25,018 bases of DNA from a virus (taxonomy: Duplodnaviria; Heunggongvirae; Uroviricota; Caudoviricetes). The position numbers were made by a program, and so were the translations under genes. Shown here in pieces: positions 11,855 through 18,084 of the stretch. Every line of letters begins with the position of its first letter. Positions within the stretch are counted from its first letter, which is position 1. The notes beneath the pieces are model-generated. The model was not told where the DNA came from and made no database searches. It saw only the letters and a program-made list of their open reading frames with translations. The stretch spans positions 1 through 25,018 of IMG/VR virus record IMGVR_UViG_3300012347_000364; one strand, 5' to 3'.

Positions 11855-14374
11855 TTGAAATTCTATACACACGTACATCTGCACAAAGCAGACATCTTAC
11901 TTCGAGGATATGAAAATGGCCAACGAGTGCAACGCTCGATCCGCTATCAGCCATACATATTCGAACCCAATCGCGTCTATCAAGAGAAAGGCGTAGAAAC
12001 TCCCTTCCGTACGTTGAAGGGAGAACCTGTTTACAAGAACGAATTCGATAGCGTATTTGAAGCACGCGAGCACATCAAACAATTCAAAGGCGTTGCTGGT
12101 AAGCCGTTATATGGTCTAGACAGTTTCGTCTATACGTTCATCAACGACAACTACCCCGGCGATATTGACTACGATCCGAAAGTGATTAGCCTAGTATCGC
12201 TCGATATTGAGGTTGACTCTGAAGGTGGTTTTCCTGACATTGCGCAAGCAGACCGAATGGTTACTGCTATTACTTTGCGCAAACGCGGCAAATCATATGT
12301 GTTTGGTTTGAAGCCTTACACTGTTGAGCACGAGAGCGTCACATATATTGAATGTAAGGATGAGCATGACCTTCTCAATAAGTTTCTTTCTACGTGGCAA
12401 TCGCAATTGATTGATCCGGACGTCGTTACGGGTTGGAACATTGAGTTCTTCGATATTCCGTATTTGGTTAACCGCATCCGTCGTACGATGGGTGATGTTT
12501 CTGCTAAGCGCTTGTCGCCATGGGGCATTCTAGATCAACGTACGCTAGAAATCATGGGGAAAGAATACACTGTATACACGCCTGTAGGGATTAACATCAT
12601 CGACTACATGCAGGCATATAAGAAATTCTCGTTCCAGATGCAAGAGTCTTATAAGCTAGATCATATCGCGTTTACAGAACTAGGCGAACGTAAGTTGGAC
12701 TATAACGAGCTCGGTTTCGAGACGTTGGATGAGTTCTACAAAGGCGACTATCAAAACTACATCAACTACAACATTCGAGATACTGAATTGGTTGATAAGC
12801 TAGAAGATAAGCTGAAGTTTCTAGAGCAGATCTATGCTATTGCATATGACGGCCACGTCAACTTTGCAGACGCGTTTACTTCTGTGCGTATGTGGGACGT
12901 TATCATTCACAACTACTTGCTGTCTCGTGGCATCGTTGTACCGATGGTCGAGCGTGGTGCTAAGTTTGGTCAGATTGTGGGTGCTTATGTTAAAGACCCG
13001 CAAGTTGGTATGCATCCATGGGTAGTGTCGTTTGACTTGAACTCGCTATACCCTCACTTGATCATGCAATACAACATCTCGCCAGAGACGTATGTCGATC
13101 AGATGTATGGATTGACTGTGGATAAGATTCTTGATGGTGGATTGAACGGAGCACCACGCGATGAAGCTATTGCACGTAATCTAGCAATTGCTGCTTCAGG
13201 TTGTACTTTCGATCGCGACTTCCGAGGATTCTTGCCAACGTTAATGCAGAAGATGTACAACGATCGTGTTACGTTCAAGAAGCAGATGATTGCTGCAAAG
13301 CAGCAGTATGAGAAGACAAAGACATACGAGCTTGAGAAAGAGATTGCACGTTGCCATAACATGCAGCTTGCTAAGAAGATTCAATTGAACTCAGCTTATG
13401 GTGCTTTATCCAACGTATACTTCCGCTGGTTCGATATCAACCTAGCAGAGTCGATTACTAAGTCTGGTCAGCTTTCTATCCGTTGGATGGAACGCAAGAT
13501 GAATGCTTATCTCAACAAGCAACTGAAGACTGGTGAAGTTGATTATGTGATTGCTTGTGATACAGATTCCATGTACTTGGATCTTGGCGAGCTCGTCAAT
13601 CAAACGTGTCAAGGCAAGTCTACGCAAGAGATTGTTGCATACTTAGATAAAGTGTGTGAGAAGATCTTTGAACCATTCATCGATAAGTCGTACCAAGAGT
13701 TGGCAGATTATGTCAACGCTTACGATCAGAAGATGAAGATGAAGCGAGAGGCGATTGCTGATAAGGGTATCTGGACTGCTAAGAAGCGATACATCTTGAA
13801 CGTGTACAACCTGGAAGGGGTCGCATACGAGGAAGCTAAGCTGAAGATTCAGGGCATCGAGGCTGTACGTTCATCAACACCATCATCTTGTCGTGATAAC
13901 ATTAAGAAGGCCCTGAAGTTGATTATGACATCGACGGAAGATGATTTGATTAACTTTATCGCTAACTTCCGAGAAGAATTCAAGCAGATGCCTTTCGAGC
14001 AGATTGCGTTCCCGCGTACTGTTCGTGGATTATCGGAGTACCATGATGCTGCTACAATCTTCCGTAAGTCTACGCCCATTCATGTACGCGGTGCATTGAT
14101 TTACAACCACATGCTGAAGGAGAATAAGCTGCAGAATAAATACCAAGTGATCGGCGAAGGTGAGAAGATTAAATTCTGTCACTTCAAACTACCGAACCCT
14201 GCAATGAGCAACATTGTAGCATCATCTGGTGCGTTGCCTAAAGAGCTTGACTTAGTCAATTATATCGATTATGATATGCAGTTTCAAAAATCATTCATCG
14301 ATCCACTTCAAACCATCCTAGACGTTCTTGGGTGGCATACAGAGAAACGAGTCACTTTAGATTCGTTCTTCTAA
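11855..14374 (+). CDS. 43: Family B DNA polymerase (T4 gp43-like)
   Basis: ExoI DIE, ExoII GWNIEFFDIPY, ExoIII YNIRD, motif A SFDLNSLYP, motif B KIQLNSAYG, motif C CDTDS; C-terminal clamp-binding TLDSFF; TTG start. Confidence 0.97.
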   Translation: MKFYTHVHLHKADILLRGYENGQRVQRSIRYQPYIFEPNRVYQEKGVETPFRTLKGEPVYKNEFDSVFEAREHIKQFKGVAGKPLYGLDSFVYTFINDNYPGDIDYDPKVISLVSLDIEVDSEGGFPDIAQADRMVTAITLRKRGKSYVFGLKPYTVEHESVTYIECKDEHDLLNKFLSTWQSQLIDPDVVTGWNIEFFDIPYLVNRIRRTMGDVSAKRLSPWGILDQRTLEIMGKEYTVYTPVGINIIDYMQAYKKFSFQMQESYKLDHIAFTELGERKLDYNELGFETLDEFYKGDYQNYINYNIRDTELVDKLEDKLKFLEQIYAIAYDGHVNFADAFTSVRMWDVIIHNYLLSRGIVVPMVERGAKFGQIVGAYVKDPQVGMHPWVVSFDLNSLYPHLIMQYNISPETYVDQMYGLTVDKILDGGLNGAPRDEAIARNLAIAASGCTFDRDFRGFLPTLMQKMYNDRVTFKKQMIAAKQQYEKTKTYELEKEIARCHNMQLAKKIQLNSAYGALSNVYFRWFDINLAESITKSGQLSIRWMERKMNAYLNKQLKTGEVDYVIACDTDSMYLDLGELVNQTCQGKSTQEIVAYLDKVCEKIFEPFIDKSYQELADYVNAYDQKMKMKREAIADKGIWTAKKRYILNVYNLEGVAYEEAKLKIQGIEAVRSSTPSSCRDNIKKALKLIMTSTEDDLINFIANFREEFKQMPFEQIAFPRTVRGLSEYHDAATIFRKSTPIHVRGALIYNHMLKENKLQNKYQVIGEGEKIKFCHFKLPNPAMSNIVASSGALPKELDLVNYIDYDMQFQKSFIDPLQTILDVLGWHTEKRVTLDSFF

Positions 14375-14378
14375 ACAC

Positions 14379-14441
14379 AGAGGCCTCAAAAGCATCATCC
14401 CTCTATAATAATTCTGCTGCTATGTCTAACATAGGAGTCTT
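14379..14441 (+). promoter_or_regulatory. preQ1-I-like riboswitch candidate
   Basis: P1 AGAGG/CCTCT, loop ending in C, tail starting ATAA, possible pseudoknot AGCA/TGCT, SD-overlapping hairpin CTATGT/ACATAG; directly upstream of queD. Confidence 0.55.
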
Positions 14442-14951
14442 ATGACCAACACAATTACACCAATCACATACAAGTACACAAGCACGAAAGAATACGTAGA
14501 CGCATTCCCAGTTGCATATCGCCAATGGCGTGCTGACTCACATTGTAACCTGATTCACGGCTATTCGTTTAGCATGAAGTTTTATTTCGGCACCAATGAT
14601 TTGGATGTCCGTAACTGGGCAGCCGATTATGGCGGCTTGAAAGAGCTGAAGGGCTTGTTGCAAGACCAATTTGATCACACATTGCTAGTTGCAGAAGATG
14701 ATCCTGAATTGGCGACATATAAGATTCTTCAAGAGAAGAACATGGCTAAGCTAACTATCCTTCCTAAGTTGGGTTGCGAGGGTTTGGCTGACCAACTCTA
14801 CAAATACGTTAATGGCGTATACATTCCTGATATGTGGGGTCCATCAGAAGCAAAACGTTTGTGGTGCTACCGCGTTGAAGTTCGTGAAACGCAGAGCAAT
14901 ATGGCATTCCGTGAAGGCCACCGCGAATGGAATGAAGACTTGTTCGCTTAA
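14442..14951 (+). CDS. queD: 6-carboxytetrahydropterin synthase-like (QueD/PTPS family)
   Basis: RQWRADSHCNLIHGYS, DYGGLK, FDHTLL, GCEGLA, VRET; AGGAG SD. Confidence 0.85.
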   Translation: MTNTITPITYKYTSTKEYVDAFPVAYRQWRADSHCNLIHGYSFSMKFYFGTNDLDVRNWAADYGGLKELKGLLQDQFDHTLLVAEDDPELATYKILQEKNMAKLTILPKLGCEGLADQLYKYVNGVYIPDMWGPSEAKRLWCYRVEVRETQSNMAFREGHREWNEDLFA

Positions 14952-14960
14952 GGAAGCAAA

Positions 14961-15254
14961 ATGGCAAAGATAATTAACGACGACGATTTCGACTTCGGCT
15001 TCTCAGCCGTTAGTGAGCAGGACCTGAAAGCGATGGAGCGTGAGCTCGAAGCTAAGGTCGCTATTCAGAATACACAGTTGCAAGAAGTAGCAGCTAGCTA
15101 TGAGGAGAAGTTAGATCAGTTGTATACCATGGTAATGCCTCTATTGAAGAACTTAGCAAAAGACTCTGATAAAGACTACATCTATTGGCCAGATCGTCAG
15201 AAGAAGATGTTAGAGTTTATTAGAAAAGTAGAGACGTTAGTAAATGGTAGTTAA
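14961..15254 (+). CDS. Conserved phage hypothetical protein
   Basis: DDFDFGFS N-terminus, PLLKNL..D..K.YIYWP.R; AAGGA SD. Confidence 0.75.
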   Translation: MAKIINDDDFDFGFSAVSEQDLKAMERELEAKVAIQNTQLQEVAASYEEKLDQLYTMVMPLLKNLAKDSDKDYIYWPDRQKKMLEFIRKVETLVNGS

Positions 15255-16290
15255 TTATCTTGCACTGTTAGTCGCGCTACTGCTTTCTGCAGTGGCTGCG
15301 TATTATAGTATTGTTGGACTGGCTGTTATCTTTGCTTCAGCTATGGTTCCGGTCGTCGTAATGGCCTCCACACTAGAAGCTGGCAAGGTTGTTGCGGCGT
15401 CCTGGTTGTACCGTAATTGGAACACTTCACCAAGGTTCATCAAATACTATCTAACAGTTGCAGTATTCATCCTCATGCTAATTACGAGCATGGGGATTTT
15501 TGGATTCCTATCCAAGGCGCATCTAGAGCAAGCAGTAGCTACCGGCGAAGTTGGATCTAAGTTAGCGATATATGATGAAAAGATAAAGGCATCTAAAGAG
15601 AACATCGACGCAAGCCGTAAAGCGCTTAAACAGATGGATGATGCAGTGGACCAGGTCATGGGCCGAAGCACTGATGAAAAGGGTGCTGATAAAGCTGTCG
15701 CTGTTCGACGTAGCCAACAAAAAGAACGTAGTCGACTGTTGTCGGATATTGAGACTGAGCAGAAAACAGTTAGCCGACTTGTTGAAGAGTCTGCACCAAT
15801 ACGACAAGAAGTACGTAAGGTTGAAGCAGAAGTCGGTCCAATAAAATATATTGCAGCATTGGCGTATGGAGATAATCCTGACACTAATATGCTGGAGAGT
15901 GCTGTACGAGCAGTGATTATATTGCTCGTGTCGGTATTTGATCCATTAGCAATTATTATGCTGTTGGCTGCAAGCCACTCGATCGCCCAACATAATAAGA
16001 TTGAAGAAGTTGAATCATCAGCGCCGGTGAAGAAATCACGCGTTCAAGAACCAGAGCCAGTTGTTGATTCGATGCCAGATCCGATCGACAAGAAGCGAAC
16101 GATTAAGTCTAAACGAACCAAGCTGCCTGATTTAGATTTCATTGAAACACCTCTACCACCAGAGCCAGCTCCTGTTGAGGAGAAAGAGGGATGGTCGCCT
16201 AGATGGTGGAGACGTGCAGGTCAGTTGATTGATCGAAAGAAGAGTGGTATTATTGAGATTGATAAGCAGTCGATCGTTAATATGAAATGA
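15244..16290 (+). CDS. Membrane protein with coiled-coil region
   Basis: Several N-terminal TM helices, central coiled coil, TM near FDPLAIIML, Pro/Glu-rich tail. Confidence 0.8.
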   Translation: MVVNYLALLVALLLSAVAAYYSIVGLAVIFASAMVPVVVMASTLEAGKVVAASWLYRNWNTSPRFIKYYLTVAVFILMLITSMGIFGFLSKAHLEQAVATGEVGSKLAIYDEKIKASKENIDASRKALKQMDDAVDQVMGRSTDEKGADKAVAVRRSQQKERSRLLSDIETEQKTVSRLVEESAPIRQEVRKVEAEVGPIKYIAALAYGDNPDTNMLESAVRAVIILLVSVFDPLAIIMLLAASHSIAQHNKIEEVESSAPVKKSRVQEPEPVVDSMPDPIDKKRTIKSKRTKLPDLDFIETPLPPEPAPVEEKEGWSPRWWRRAGQLIDRKKSGIIEIDKQSIVNMK

Positions 16291-16598
16291 CGGAAGAGAA
16301 CGTAAAGAAATTACACGCACTGATAGTTGAGAAGGGTACGCAAATACATAACGAGCTGCCTTCTCACCATGCCCATCCAGGAGGACGTATCGGAATAGCT
16401 CACATCTATTCTGTTATTAAATCTGTGATGGGTGTTCCTGCTAAACAGTGTCGTGATTGTCGTTATGATGATATCGTGGAAATAGTCAACTATGTCGTTG
16501 ACAACGTTCATGTGCTTAAAGGCCTAACAAGTCCTCTACATGAGAAGTATGACAAAGAGCCAGTATATGAACCAGCATCATTGGAAAAGTTTTTCTAG
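16287..16598 (+). CDS. Hypothetical protein
   Basis: 103 aa; HPGGRIGIAH and CRDC motifs; ends in TAG, in frame with the next ORF. Confidence 0.78.
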   Translation: MTEENVKKLHALIVEKGTQIHNELPSHHAHPGGRIGIAHIYSVIKSVMGVPAKQCRDCRYDDIVEIVNYVVDNVHVLKGLTSPLHEKYDKEPVYEPASLEKFF

Positions 16599-17019: not shown

Positions 17020-18084
17020 ATGAGCTTACTAGCTAAAATTCGTAAGAATAGTACGATTAAAGAAACGGCAATCTTATCAGAGTCGAAGTTCTTCACGAAG
17101 AAGGATATGATTCCTACAGCCATCCCTGCAATTAATATTGCACTGAGCGGACGTCTTGATGGTGGCCTAACACCTGGCCTTACAATGTGGGCAGGTCCAT
17201 CAAAGCATTTTAAGACTGCATTCAGTTTGTTAATGGCACGCTCGTATCTTGACAAGTACCCAGAAGCTGTTATGTTGTTCTATGATTCAGAGTTTGGTAC
17301 TCCGCAGTCGTATTTCGATTCGTTTGGTATTGATGTGGGTCGTGTTGTTCATACACCGATTATGGACGTTGAGCAATTGAAGTTTGACATCATGCAACAG
17401 CTGGCAGGCATCGATCGCAACGACCGTGTCATCATCGTTGTAGACTCGATCGGTAACCTAGCTTCTAAGAAAGAAGTTGAGGATGCGCTGGAAGGTAAGT
17501 CTGTTGGTGATATGTCACGCGCAAAGCAGATCAAATCATTGTTCCGTATGGTTACACCACACTTAACGATGAAGGATATTCCTATGATCGTTGTTAACCA
17601 CACATACAAGACATTGGAATTGTATTCTAAAGATGTTGTTGGTGGTGGTACTGGTTCTTACTACTCTGCAGACAACATCTTTATCTTAGGACGTCAGCAA
17701 GAGAAAGAAGGCACAGAAGTTGTTGGTTATAACTTCATCATCAACGTAGAGAAGTCCCGTCATTGCCGCGAGAAGTCTAAAATTCCTGTCACAGTGAAGC
17801 ATGATGGTGGTATCTCTACGTGGTCTGGCTTACTCGATATGGCATTGGAATCTGGCCACGTGATTAAACCATCGAATGGTTGGTACTCACGTGTCGATGC
17901 AGATGGCGTCGTGGAAGAGAAGAAGTGGCGTATCAAGGACACTGACTCCAAAGAGTTCTGGGGCTCCGTGATCACTAACAAAACGTTCCAAGAATGGATC
18001 AAGAACACTTATCAGGTATCTTCTGGTTCGATCATGTCGTCAGAAGATGACTTGGCAGAAGAACTCAGCGCAATTACTGAATAA
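17020..18084 (+). CDS. uvsX: RecA-like recombinase UvsX
   Basis: Walker A GPSKHFKT, FYDSEFG, Walker B VVDSIGN, VGGGTGSYYSA, VEKSR. Confidence 0.96.
   Translation: MSLLAKIRKNSTIKETAILSESKFFTKKDMIPTAIPAINIALSGRLDGGLTPGLTMWAGPSKHFKTAFSLLMARSYLDKYPEAVMLFYDSEFGTPQSYFDSFGIDVGRVVHTPIMDVEQLKFDIMQQLAGIDRNDRVIIVVDSIGNLASKKEVEDALEGKSVGDMSRAKQIKSLFRMVTPHLTMKDIPMIVVNHTYKTLELYSKDVVGGGTGSYYSADNIFILGRQQEKEGTEVVGYNFIINVEKSRHCREKSKIPVTVKHDGGISTWSGLLDMALESGHVIKPSNGWYSRVDADGVVEEKKWRIKDTDSKEFWGSVITNKTFQEWIKNTYQVSSGSIMSSEDDLAEELSAITE

Follow-up and report, generated by a model that had tools for sequence, protein, structure and literature searches.

We analysed a 25,018-nt stretch of viral DNA (the window), positions 1 to 25,018 of IMG/VR record IMGVR_UViG_3300012347_000364, and studied the leader of a gene that encodes a QueD-like protein of the PTPS family. 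The record is a complete phage genome of 222,825 bp with terminal repeats, and the window is a part of it. The phage is T4-like, with a gp43-type family B DNA polymerase gene upstream of the queD-like gene and a UvsX homologue at 17020-18084. The closest matches at the DNA level were polymerase genes of cyanomyoviruses (about 66% identity). The gap between the gp43 stop codon (TAA, 14372-14374) and the ATG of the queD-like gene at 14442 measures 67 nt. We found that this gap is filled by a predicted RNA element, a compact H-type pseudoknot of about 43 nt (14379-14421) that starts 5 nt past the stop codon and is followed by a hairpin over the Shine-Dalgarno (SD) sequence (Table 1). A first-pass annotation of the window had proposed a preQ1-I-like riboswitch at this place, and all the sequence strings that it named, as well as its statement that the element fills the gp43-queD gap, were found to be correct.

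In this pseudoknot, a 5-bp helix (P1) encloses a loop, and part of the loop pairs with the tail behind P1 to form a second helix (P2). The loop bases AGCA had been proposed to pair with TGCT at either of two sites in the tail, and both pairings are available in the window. Since the homologues fix the register, we placed the outer part of P2 (P2a) at the second site, 14418-14421.

To examine conservation, we searched IMG/VR with the PTPS-like protein, obtained at least 591 relatives and kept 80 loci. A covariance model built from 50 variants was then searched on 81 sources, the window and the 80 loci. In 73 of the 81 sources the model gave exactly one match, which in every case lay upstream of the gene and on its strand. 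P1 and the tail are conserved upstream of the homologous queD genes in these sources, as the first-pass annotation had expected of a functional leader. We also ran a second, independent pattern scan, in which only the invariant bases were constrained and the outer P1 pairs were left free. It returned 80 further viral loci among the matches listed, and 100% (80/80) of these were covariance-model hits as well. The element is kept by more than 100 uncultured phages.

The helices are conserved as pairings. Across 76 distinct pattern hits, P1 was 99.5% paired, and four of its five pairs were changed on both sides. Its covariation score was 0.241, compared with 0.036 in shuffled alignments (0/500) and at most 0.052 in slid controls. 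P1 occurs as AGCGG/CCGCU, AGAGG/CCUCU, AGUGG/CCACU, ACCGG/CCGGU, UGCGG/CCGCA and UCCGG/CCGGA. Most relatives carry AGCGG/CCGCU, and the identity of P1 in the window with that of the Bacillus subtilis queC preQ1-I aptamer, to which the first-pass annotation had drawn attention, is coincidental because 103 of 119 variants have C-G, not A-U, at the third P1 pair.

For P2, we used 119 distinct variants in an ungapped alignment with seven fixed column pairs. This alignment was anchored on the invariant bases, so it was not fitted to the P2 structure. P2 was 84% paired, compared with 65% in shuffles, and its covariation score was 0.472 versus 0.182 (0/500), with slid controls at 0.151 or below. The pair beside the P2 mismatch was UA in 36 variants, GC in 21, AU in 16 and CG in 9. 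In the inner part of the helix (P2b), the A-U pair was replaced by G-C in four variants, with both sides changed, and the C-G pair was invariant. After correction for register, we parsed 43 distinct P2 strand combinations, for example GGCG/CGCC, GGUG/CACC, GGCU/AGCC, GACUU/AAGUC and UGACAC/GUGUCA. An earlier shuffle test, which left the register free, had given a modest separation only (mean 4.02 bp versus 3.57 +/- 0.08), and the test with fixed columns is the cleaner of the two.

About 15 unpaired or junction bases were invariant across the 119 variants. The innermost G-C pair of P1 was present in 119/119 and the next in 118/119. The first loop segment (L1) started with NCT in 113 of 119, its first base being C, U or A. 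The first-pass annotation had read the C at this position as a telling deviation from preQ1-I, but the position is not conserved at all. The second segment (L2) was TC in 106 variants, TTC in 8, CC in 3 and AC in 2, and its final C was found in every variant (119/119). In the third (L3), positions 3, 7 and 9 were invariant (A, A and U), position 10 was C in 118/119, position 5 was A in 117/119 and position 6 was A in 113/119. The loop as a whole spans 13-19 nt, and P2 has 5-9 bp (2 bp and 3-7 bp, with the mismatch between them). Taken together, these sequence comparisons confirm that the queD leader holds a real, conserved H-type pseudoknot, beyond what chance would give.

Table 1. Features of the queD leader and its flanking genes in window coordinates
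Feature	Coordinates	Strand	Remarks
gp43-type family B DNA polymerase	11855..14374	+	Pfam DNA_pol_B and exonuclease domain; upstream neighbour, context only
P1 5' strand AGAGG	14379..14383	+	Pairs with 14400-14404; two inner G-C pairs invariant or nearly so
16-nt loop CCTCAAAAGCATCATC	14384..14399	+	Between the P1 strands
L1 CCTCAAA	14384..14390	+	3-12 nt long in variants; positions 2-3 usually CU
P2a 5' strand AGCA	14391..14394	+	Pairs with TGCT 14418-14421
U of the 1x1 U.C mismatch within P2	14395	+	T in 119/119; opposite C14417, which is C in 119/119
P2b 5' strand CA	14396..14397	+	C14396-G14416 and A14397-U14415
L2 (UC)	14398..14399	+	C14399 abuts P1
P1 3' strand CCTCT	14400..14404	+	Partner of 14379-14383
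Tail ATAATAATTCTGCTGCT	14405..14421	+	Follows CCTCT
L3 ATAATAATTC	14405..14414	+	A-rich; always 10 nt
P2 3' strand: P2b' TG, mismatch C14417, P2a' TGCT	14415..14421	+	Bases reused by the anti-SD helix
Anti-SD hairpin	14416..14438	+	CTATGT 14420-14425 with ACATAG 14429-14434, loop CTA, outer GCU/AGU pairs; within the predicted minimum-free-energy structure of the leader
Shine-Dalgarno AGGAG and start codon ATG	14433..14437 and 14442..14444	+	Read from the sequence
PTPS/QueD-like gene, 169 aa	14442..14951	+	Putative regulated gene; Pfam PTPS 1.5e-13; PHROG 2389 (QueD-like) 8.7e-34

The motif is tied to one gene. We found one copy per genome, in the phage itself and in four of five long relatives, in sense orientation and upstream of the PTPS/QueD-like gene. 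No second copy and no regulon was found in the phage's own genome or in the five long relatives. The PTPS gene was the first open reading frame (ORF) 3' of the motif in 141 of 156 hits, and in about 10 hits the two were separated by one ORF (methyltransferase, cupin or unknown). The possibility of a readthrough or frameshift signal at the gp43 stop codon was rejected, because the motif tracks queD and not the upstream gene, and often has its own promoter in relatives. On one contig (L131), two copies of the motif lie 1 kb apart (L131:5-57 and L131:999-1052). In the first, which stands before a methyltransferase-like ORF of 309 aa, P1 is compensated (ACCAG/CUGGU) and P2 is degraded; the second, before PTPS, is intact.

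A cellular origin of the motif was considered and rejected. Scanned with the pattern, 185,579 prokaryote genomes yielded 37 hits, close to the number expected by chance (about 50 on a rough estimate). Only three of the 37 were true motifs, all located on short phage-like contigs binned into metagenome-assembled genomes and before the same gene, and in the remaining hits P1 fails and the match lies inside coding sequence. The gene is present in Acidovorax phage ACP17 and Pseudomonas phage Iggy, and searches with filters off found no motif in either. A blastn search of the motif against GenBank phages, a test of low sensitivity, returned nothing; these searches of ACP17, Iggy and the GenBank phages found no cultured phage with the motif.

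We next consider how the pseudoknot meets the ribosome binding site (RBS). In the predicted minimum-free-energy (MFE) structure of the window's leader, G14416-U14418 and C14420-U14425 pair with A14429-G14434 and A14436-U14438, and AGGAG is buried. As an isolated platform, this anti-SD hairpin has a predicted energy of -8.9 kcal/mol. The pseudoknot and the hairpin are mutually exclusive because 5 nt of the hairpin are shared with the P2 3' strand. In the main clade of relatives, the anti-SD hairpin takes the form CCUAUG/CAUAGG. A second clade lacks it, and there the P2 strand (UGUCAU or GCCGUC) pairs with the start-codon region (AUGGCA). The two clades thus combine different platforms with the same aptamer, and the P2a' strand pairs with the RBS in both. 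The SD sequence lies outside P2, 13-25 nt downstream of it across variants.

These pairings are commoner than in shuffled controls. At least two P2a' bases were paired with the region from the SD to AUG+6 in 93% of 118 variants, versus 43% when the upstream half was shuffled, and the mean MFE of the platform was -8.5 versus -5.4 kcal/mol in shuffles. When P2' was blocked in RNAfold, the platform weakened from -8.5 to -3.8 kcal/mol. The first-pass annotation had called the hairpin over the SD a plausible expression platform, and both its place in the MFE structure and the RBS pairing in 93% of the variants agree with this. Since the P2 strand competes with the anti-RBS helix, formation of the pseudoknot is predicted to free the RBS, and the element would work in the ON direction.

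A promoter-like pattern overlaps the element in part of the family. In 68 of 119 variants, the last P1 base together with L3 reads as a -35 box (TTTACA, TATACA or TTGACA; at least 4/6 matches to TTGACA), followed after 16-18 bp by TGnTAnnnT in the hairpin loop. All but four of these 68 belong to the CCUAUG-hairpin clade (examples are L012:2950-2990 and L063:2955-2995). The window itself and the whole second clade have no internal promoter, yet they keep the motif. A transcript from this promoter-like site, the internal TGnTAnnnT, would carry no part of the aptamer and would also miss the 5' arm of the anti-SD hairpin.

The downstream gene belongs to the pathway that the first-pass annotation had matched with the element. 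The QueD-like ORF is the sole PTPS-family gene in its own genome, which also encodes a GTP cyclohydrolase I (FolE, at 203.4-204.1 kb) and a QueE-like radical SAM gene directly before a 148-aa phosphoribosyltransferase (G000:C1:199462-200821; L243:2963-4322). We found no match to QueC, TGT/DpdA or a B. subtilis-type QueE in this genome. Among 22 long related records, FolE and the QueE-like gene were each present in 22/22 and the phosphoribosyltransferase in 13/22, near QueE or FolE. TGT/DpdA was found in 0/22, and QueC gave partial, doubtful hits only.

The QueD-like protein is 43% identical to the QueD-like protein of phage Iggy, whose gene sits in a QueE-QueC-QueD-FolE-DpdA cluster. Its residues 27-41 read AYRQW...HCNLIHGY, and the HGY form is common to the ACP17 and Iggy proteins. 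Canonical QueD has HGH in place of HGY, and two further His zinc ligands at this region. As HGY is shared with the Iggy protein inside a Que cluster, the substitution is compatible with a role in 7-deazaguanine synthesis. Judged by gene content, the enzyme fits the middle step of a FolE-QueD-QueE route to 7-carboxy-7-deazaguanine (CDG). The pairing of QueE with a phosphoribosyltransferase, in genomes that gave no TGT/DpdA match, suggests a 7-deazapurine nucleotide pathway that works without base exchange.

Known RNA families gave no match to the element. At Rfam gathering thresholds, the whole window yielded three tRNAs only. When Rfam 15 was searched at E<=10 with the motif region of the window and that of a consensus-like relative, only noise was returned (snoRNA, lncRNA, and freshwater-2 at 12 bits). 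The preQ1-I model RF00522, whose gathering score is 39 bits, gave no hit at E<=10 on the motif in window 14300-14520, in L002 2900-3020 or in the whole genome of the phage, where its weak hits all lay elsewhere than the motif. By these searches, the element does not appear to belong to preQ1-I or to any other Rfam 15 family. The element does have general features of a riboswitch: its aptamer-like fold is conserved, it lies in the 5' leader of a metabolic gene, and its expression platforms vary.

Based on these results, we propose that the queD leader carries a ligand-sensing ON riboswitch, a reading that we regard as evenly balanced between right and wrong. We favour it because many unpaired bases around the compact pseudoknot are invariant, because the element is linked exclusively to one metabolic gene and because two different platforms use the same strand exchange. 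The P2 3' strand would have two partners, the aptamer loop in the pseudoknot or the RBS in the 9-bp anti-SD hairpin (14416-14438). A small molecule could dock among the invariant unpaired bases, namely the U.C mismatch, the UC of L2 and the A..AA.UC of L3. Binding would stabilise the pseudoknot and strip the P2 strand from the anti-SD hairpin, and the freed RBS would turn on translation of the QueD-like enzyme.

The ligand would most likely be a heterocycle from this pathway with a guanine-like face. Given that the phages encode FolE, QueD-like and QueE-like proteins, and in many cases a phosphoribosyltransferase too, but neither a clear QueC nor TGT/DpdA, our best guess is a 7-deazapurine or pterin intermediate with such a face, and this is the most likely class: a 7-deazaguanine (CDG, preQ0 or preQ1) or a pterin (the QueD substrate or product). 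Other riboswitches built on an H-type pseudoknot are SAM-II (RF00521), SAM-V (RF01826), preQ1-II (RF01054), fluoride (RF01734) and guanidine-III (RF01763). In these compact aptamers, as predicted here, the P2 3' strand couples ligand binding to RBS access. Unlike all five, the element has other conserved bases and another gene association, and none of them gave a cmscan match at E<=10.

Several observations weigh against a ligand-sensing switch. Some of the closest PTPS relatives (92-94% identity) lack the motif and are translationally coupled to the upstream gene. End-product control would not usually place an ON switch before a biosynthetic gene. Blocking P2' changed the number of paired RBS bases little (7.5 versus 8.6 of 18), so the predicted effect is a quantitative one on stability and not all-or-none. 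The overlap with a sigma70-type promoter could explain part of the sequence conservation in the CCUAUG clade. As no Rfam family matches, nothing can be borrowed from a validated class. Finally, the window's leader alone folds unremarkably (MFE -12.8 kcal/mol, z = -0.8 against shuffles), and the evidence against chance therefore comes from comparison.

We also hold, more tentatively and as somewhat less than an even prospect, that the element is a new riboswitch class, found as yet in phages only, that recognises a 7-deazapurine or pterin intermediate, possibly the QueD substrate or CDG and not preQ1, and activates translation of the QueD-like enzyme. To our knowledge, validated riboswitch classes come almost all from cellular genomes. 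A phage-confined ON aptamer of about 43 nt would add a new solution for ligand-RNA recognition, and would mean that phages meter their own auxiliary metabolism by RNA sensors. The pathway under its control would be FolE-QueD-QueE(-phosphoribosyltransferase), in which TGT/DpdA, the usual inserting enzyme, is missing. The element offers a handle on this unexplained pathway in freshwater T4-like phages, since the identity of the ligand would hint at the pathway product, and the small size of the RNA makes it directly accessible to biochemistry and structure determination.

A rather unlikely alternative is a protein-binding translational operator, in which a phage or host protein, such as the QueD-like enzyme or a T4-type regulator, would bind the conserved loops and tip the RNA towards the pseudoknot or the anti-RBS helix. 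T4-type phages control translation through leader RNA structures, including the gene 32 pseudoknot and, in gene e and soc, RBS-hiding hairpins accompanied by an internal promoter. The present leader resembles them in its T4-type phage, its 5'-leader pseudoknot and its RBS-hiding hairpin, and it recalls gene e in the promoter-like TGnTAnnnT within the hairpin loop of 68/119 relatives, which is absent from the window. Covarying helices and invariant loop bases suit a protein site as well as a metabolite pocket, and we found the motif on phage or phage-like contigs only, never in a cellular gene context.

However, classical operators overlap the RBS, and here 13-25 nt separate the element from the SD downstream, and its predicted action is by strand exchange. 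It is tied to one metabolic gene, in single copy and with no regulon, and our analysis identified no candidate binding protein. Autoregulation of the gene 32 type places the element in the leader of the gene for its own binding protein, gp32; the downstream gene here is PTPS/QueD-like. Moreover, the covarying pseudoknot competes with the hairpin, unlike the T4 pseudoknot, which nucleates protein binding. The gene 32 leader pseudoknot is mentioned in PMC3444477.

We judged as unlikely a structural element that acts independently of a ligand. Here, the pseudoknot would fold first and keep the RBS open, stabilise the 5' end of the mRNA or sense Mg2+ or temperature, and the anti-RBS helix would be a fallback or a means of tuning. 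In many relatives, an ATAAATA box of the T4 late type or a GTATAAT -10 box lies a few bases before the motif and would place it at the very start of the mRNA, and the 5'-to-3' order of folding would favour the pseudoknot before the RBS is made. This explanation does not account for the roughly 15 fixed unpaired bases, among them those of the U.C mismatch, or for the constant 10-nt length of L3, nor does it say why two unrelated platforms keep a stronger competing helix with the P2 strand.

The first-pass annotation had described the element as preQ1-I-like, and this description stood for the topology but not for family membership. preQ1-I aptamers are H-type pseudoknots with P1, P2 and L1-L3, in which the A-tract of L3 lies on P1 (PMC3444477). 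The queD leader shares the H-type topology, a 5-bp P1 with inner G-C pairs, a P2 formed between the loop and the 3' tail, an A-rich L3 after P1 and a position before a gene of the 7-deazaguanine and preQ1 pathway. Its invariant C before the P1 3' strand (C14399 here) stands where preQ1-I has its ligand-pairing C, the Watson-Crick partner of preQ1, and the two may be equivalent.

On the other hand, a genuine divergent preQ1-I member that binds preQ1 and represses queD is very unlikely. RF00522 gave no hit, the loop is longer (13-19 nt), and P2 is longer too (5-9 bp) and interrupted by the invariant U.C mismatch. L3 has a constant length of 10 nt with a near-invariant UC at its end, and the first base of L1 is variable. 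In preQ1-I, the P2 3' strand includes or abuts the SD or the terminator, whereas here the SD lies outside P2, at the distance given above. In the two preQ1-I switches of solved structure, from B. subtilis and T. tengcongensis, formation of the pseudoknot is the OFF state (PMC3444477), and the wiring of the queD leader predicts ON. The members found here were on phage or phage-like contigs only, unlike those of preQ1-I, and in the absence of a convincing QueC and of TGT, preQ1 would not be these phages' own product. The genome report of coliphage Seurat (PMC4342423) is said to mention a preQ1 riboswitch. We found no description of the present motif in the literature searched, the coverage of which was incomplete.

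Conservation at the DNA level, as a promoter or operator, is highly improbable: the sigma70-type reading (a -35 box, a 16-18 bp spacer and TGnTAnnnT) applies to 68/119 variants, but the window and the second clade keep the motif with no promoter, the compensatory changes in two helices preserve pairing and not sequence, which is unexpected for a protein-DNA site, and every copy of the motif has the same orientation as the gene.

Several minor features were noted around the locus. A terminator or attenuator was considered as a reading of the leader and rejected, since we found no terminator-like site within 13800-15200, and hence none between gp43 and the motif. The closest potential promoter of the leader is a sigma70-like TTGACT-17-TATGAT on the plus strand (window 14247-14275, 10/12 matches), within the 3' end of gp43, and this phage has no ATAAATA or GTATAAT box of the kind common upstream of the motif in relatives. 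A perfect palindrome of 8 nt, GAGGCCTC (window 14380-14387), runs from the P1 5' strand into the first bases of L1, and relatives do not keep it.

Three ORFs located 3' of queD (window 14961-16598; 97, 348 and 103 aa) gave no significant match in Pfam, NCBIfam or PHROG. The genes after PTPS are very variable in relatives and include QueE, a recurrent ORF of about 270-300 aa, a KdsA-like gene, an epimerase-like gene (labelled by eye, without Pfam confirmation), a methyltransferase and a small membrane protein.

The leader of the phage's own FolE gene was also considered as the site of a similar pseudoknot-like element, and this candidate was rejected, as the arrangement is not conserved in the FolE leaders of relatives. 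This leader (L085:1230-1366, equal to G000:C1 about 203268-203404) contains a sigma70-like TTGACT-17-TACAAT, then a hairpin with a T-run, and then GGTGG-N12-CCACC, in which the loop CCTTT is complementary to the SD AAAGG. The FolE leaders of four close relatives instead carry a GCTAC-N6-GTAGC hairpin after an ATAAATA box.

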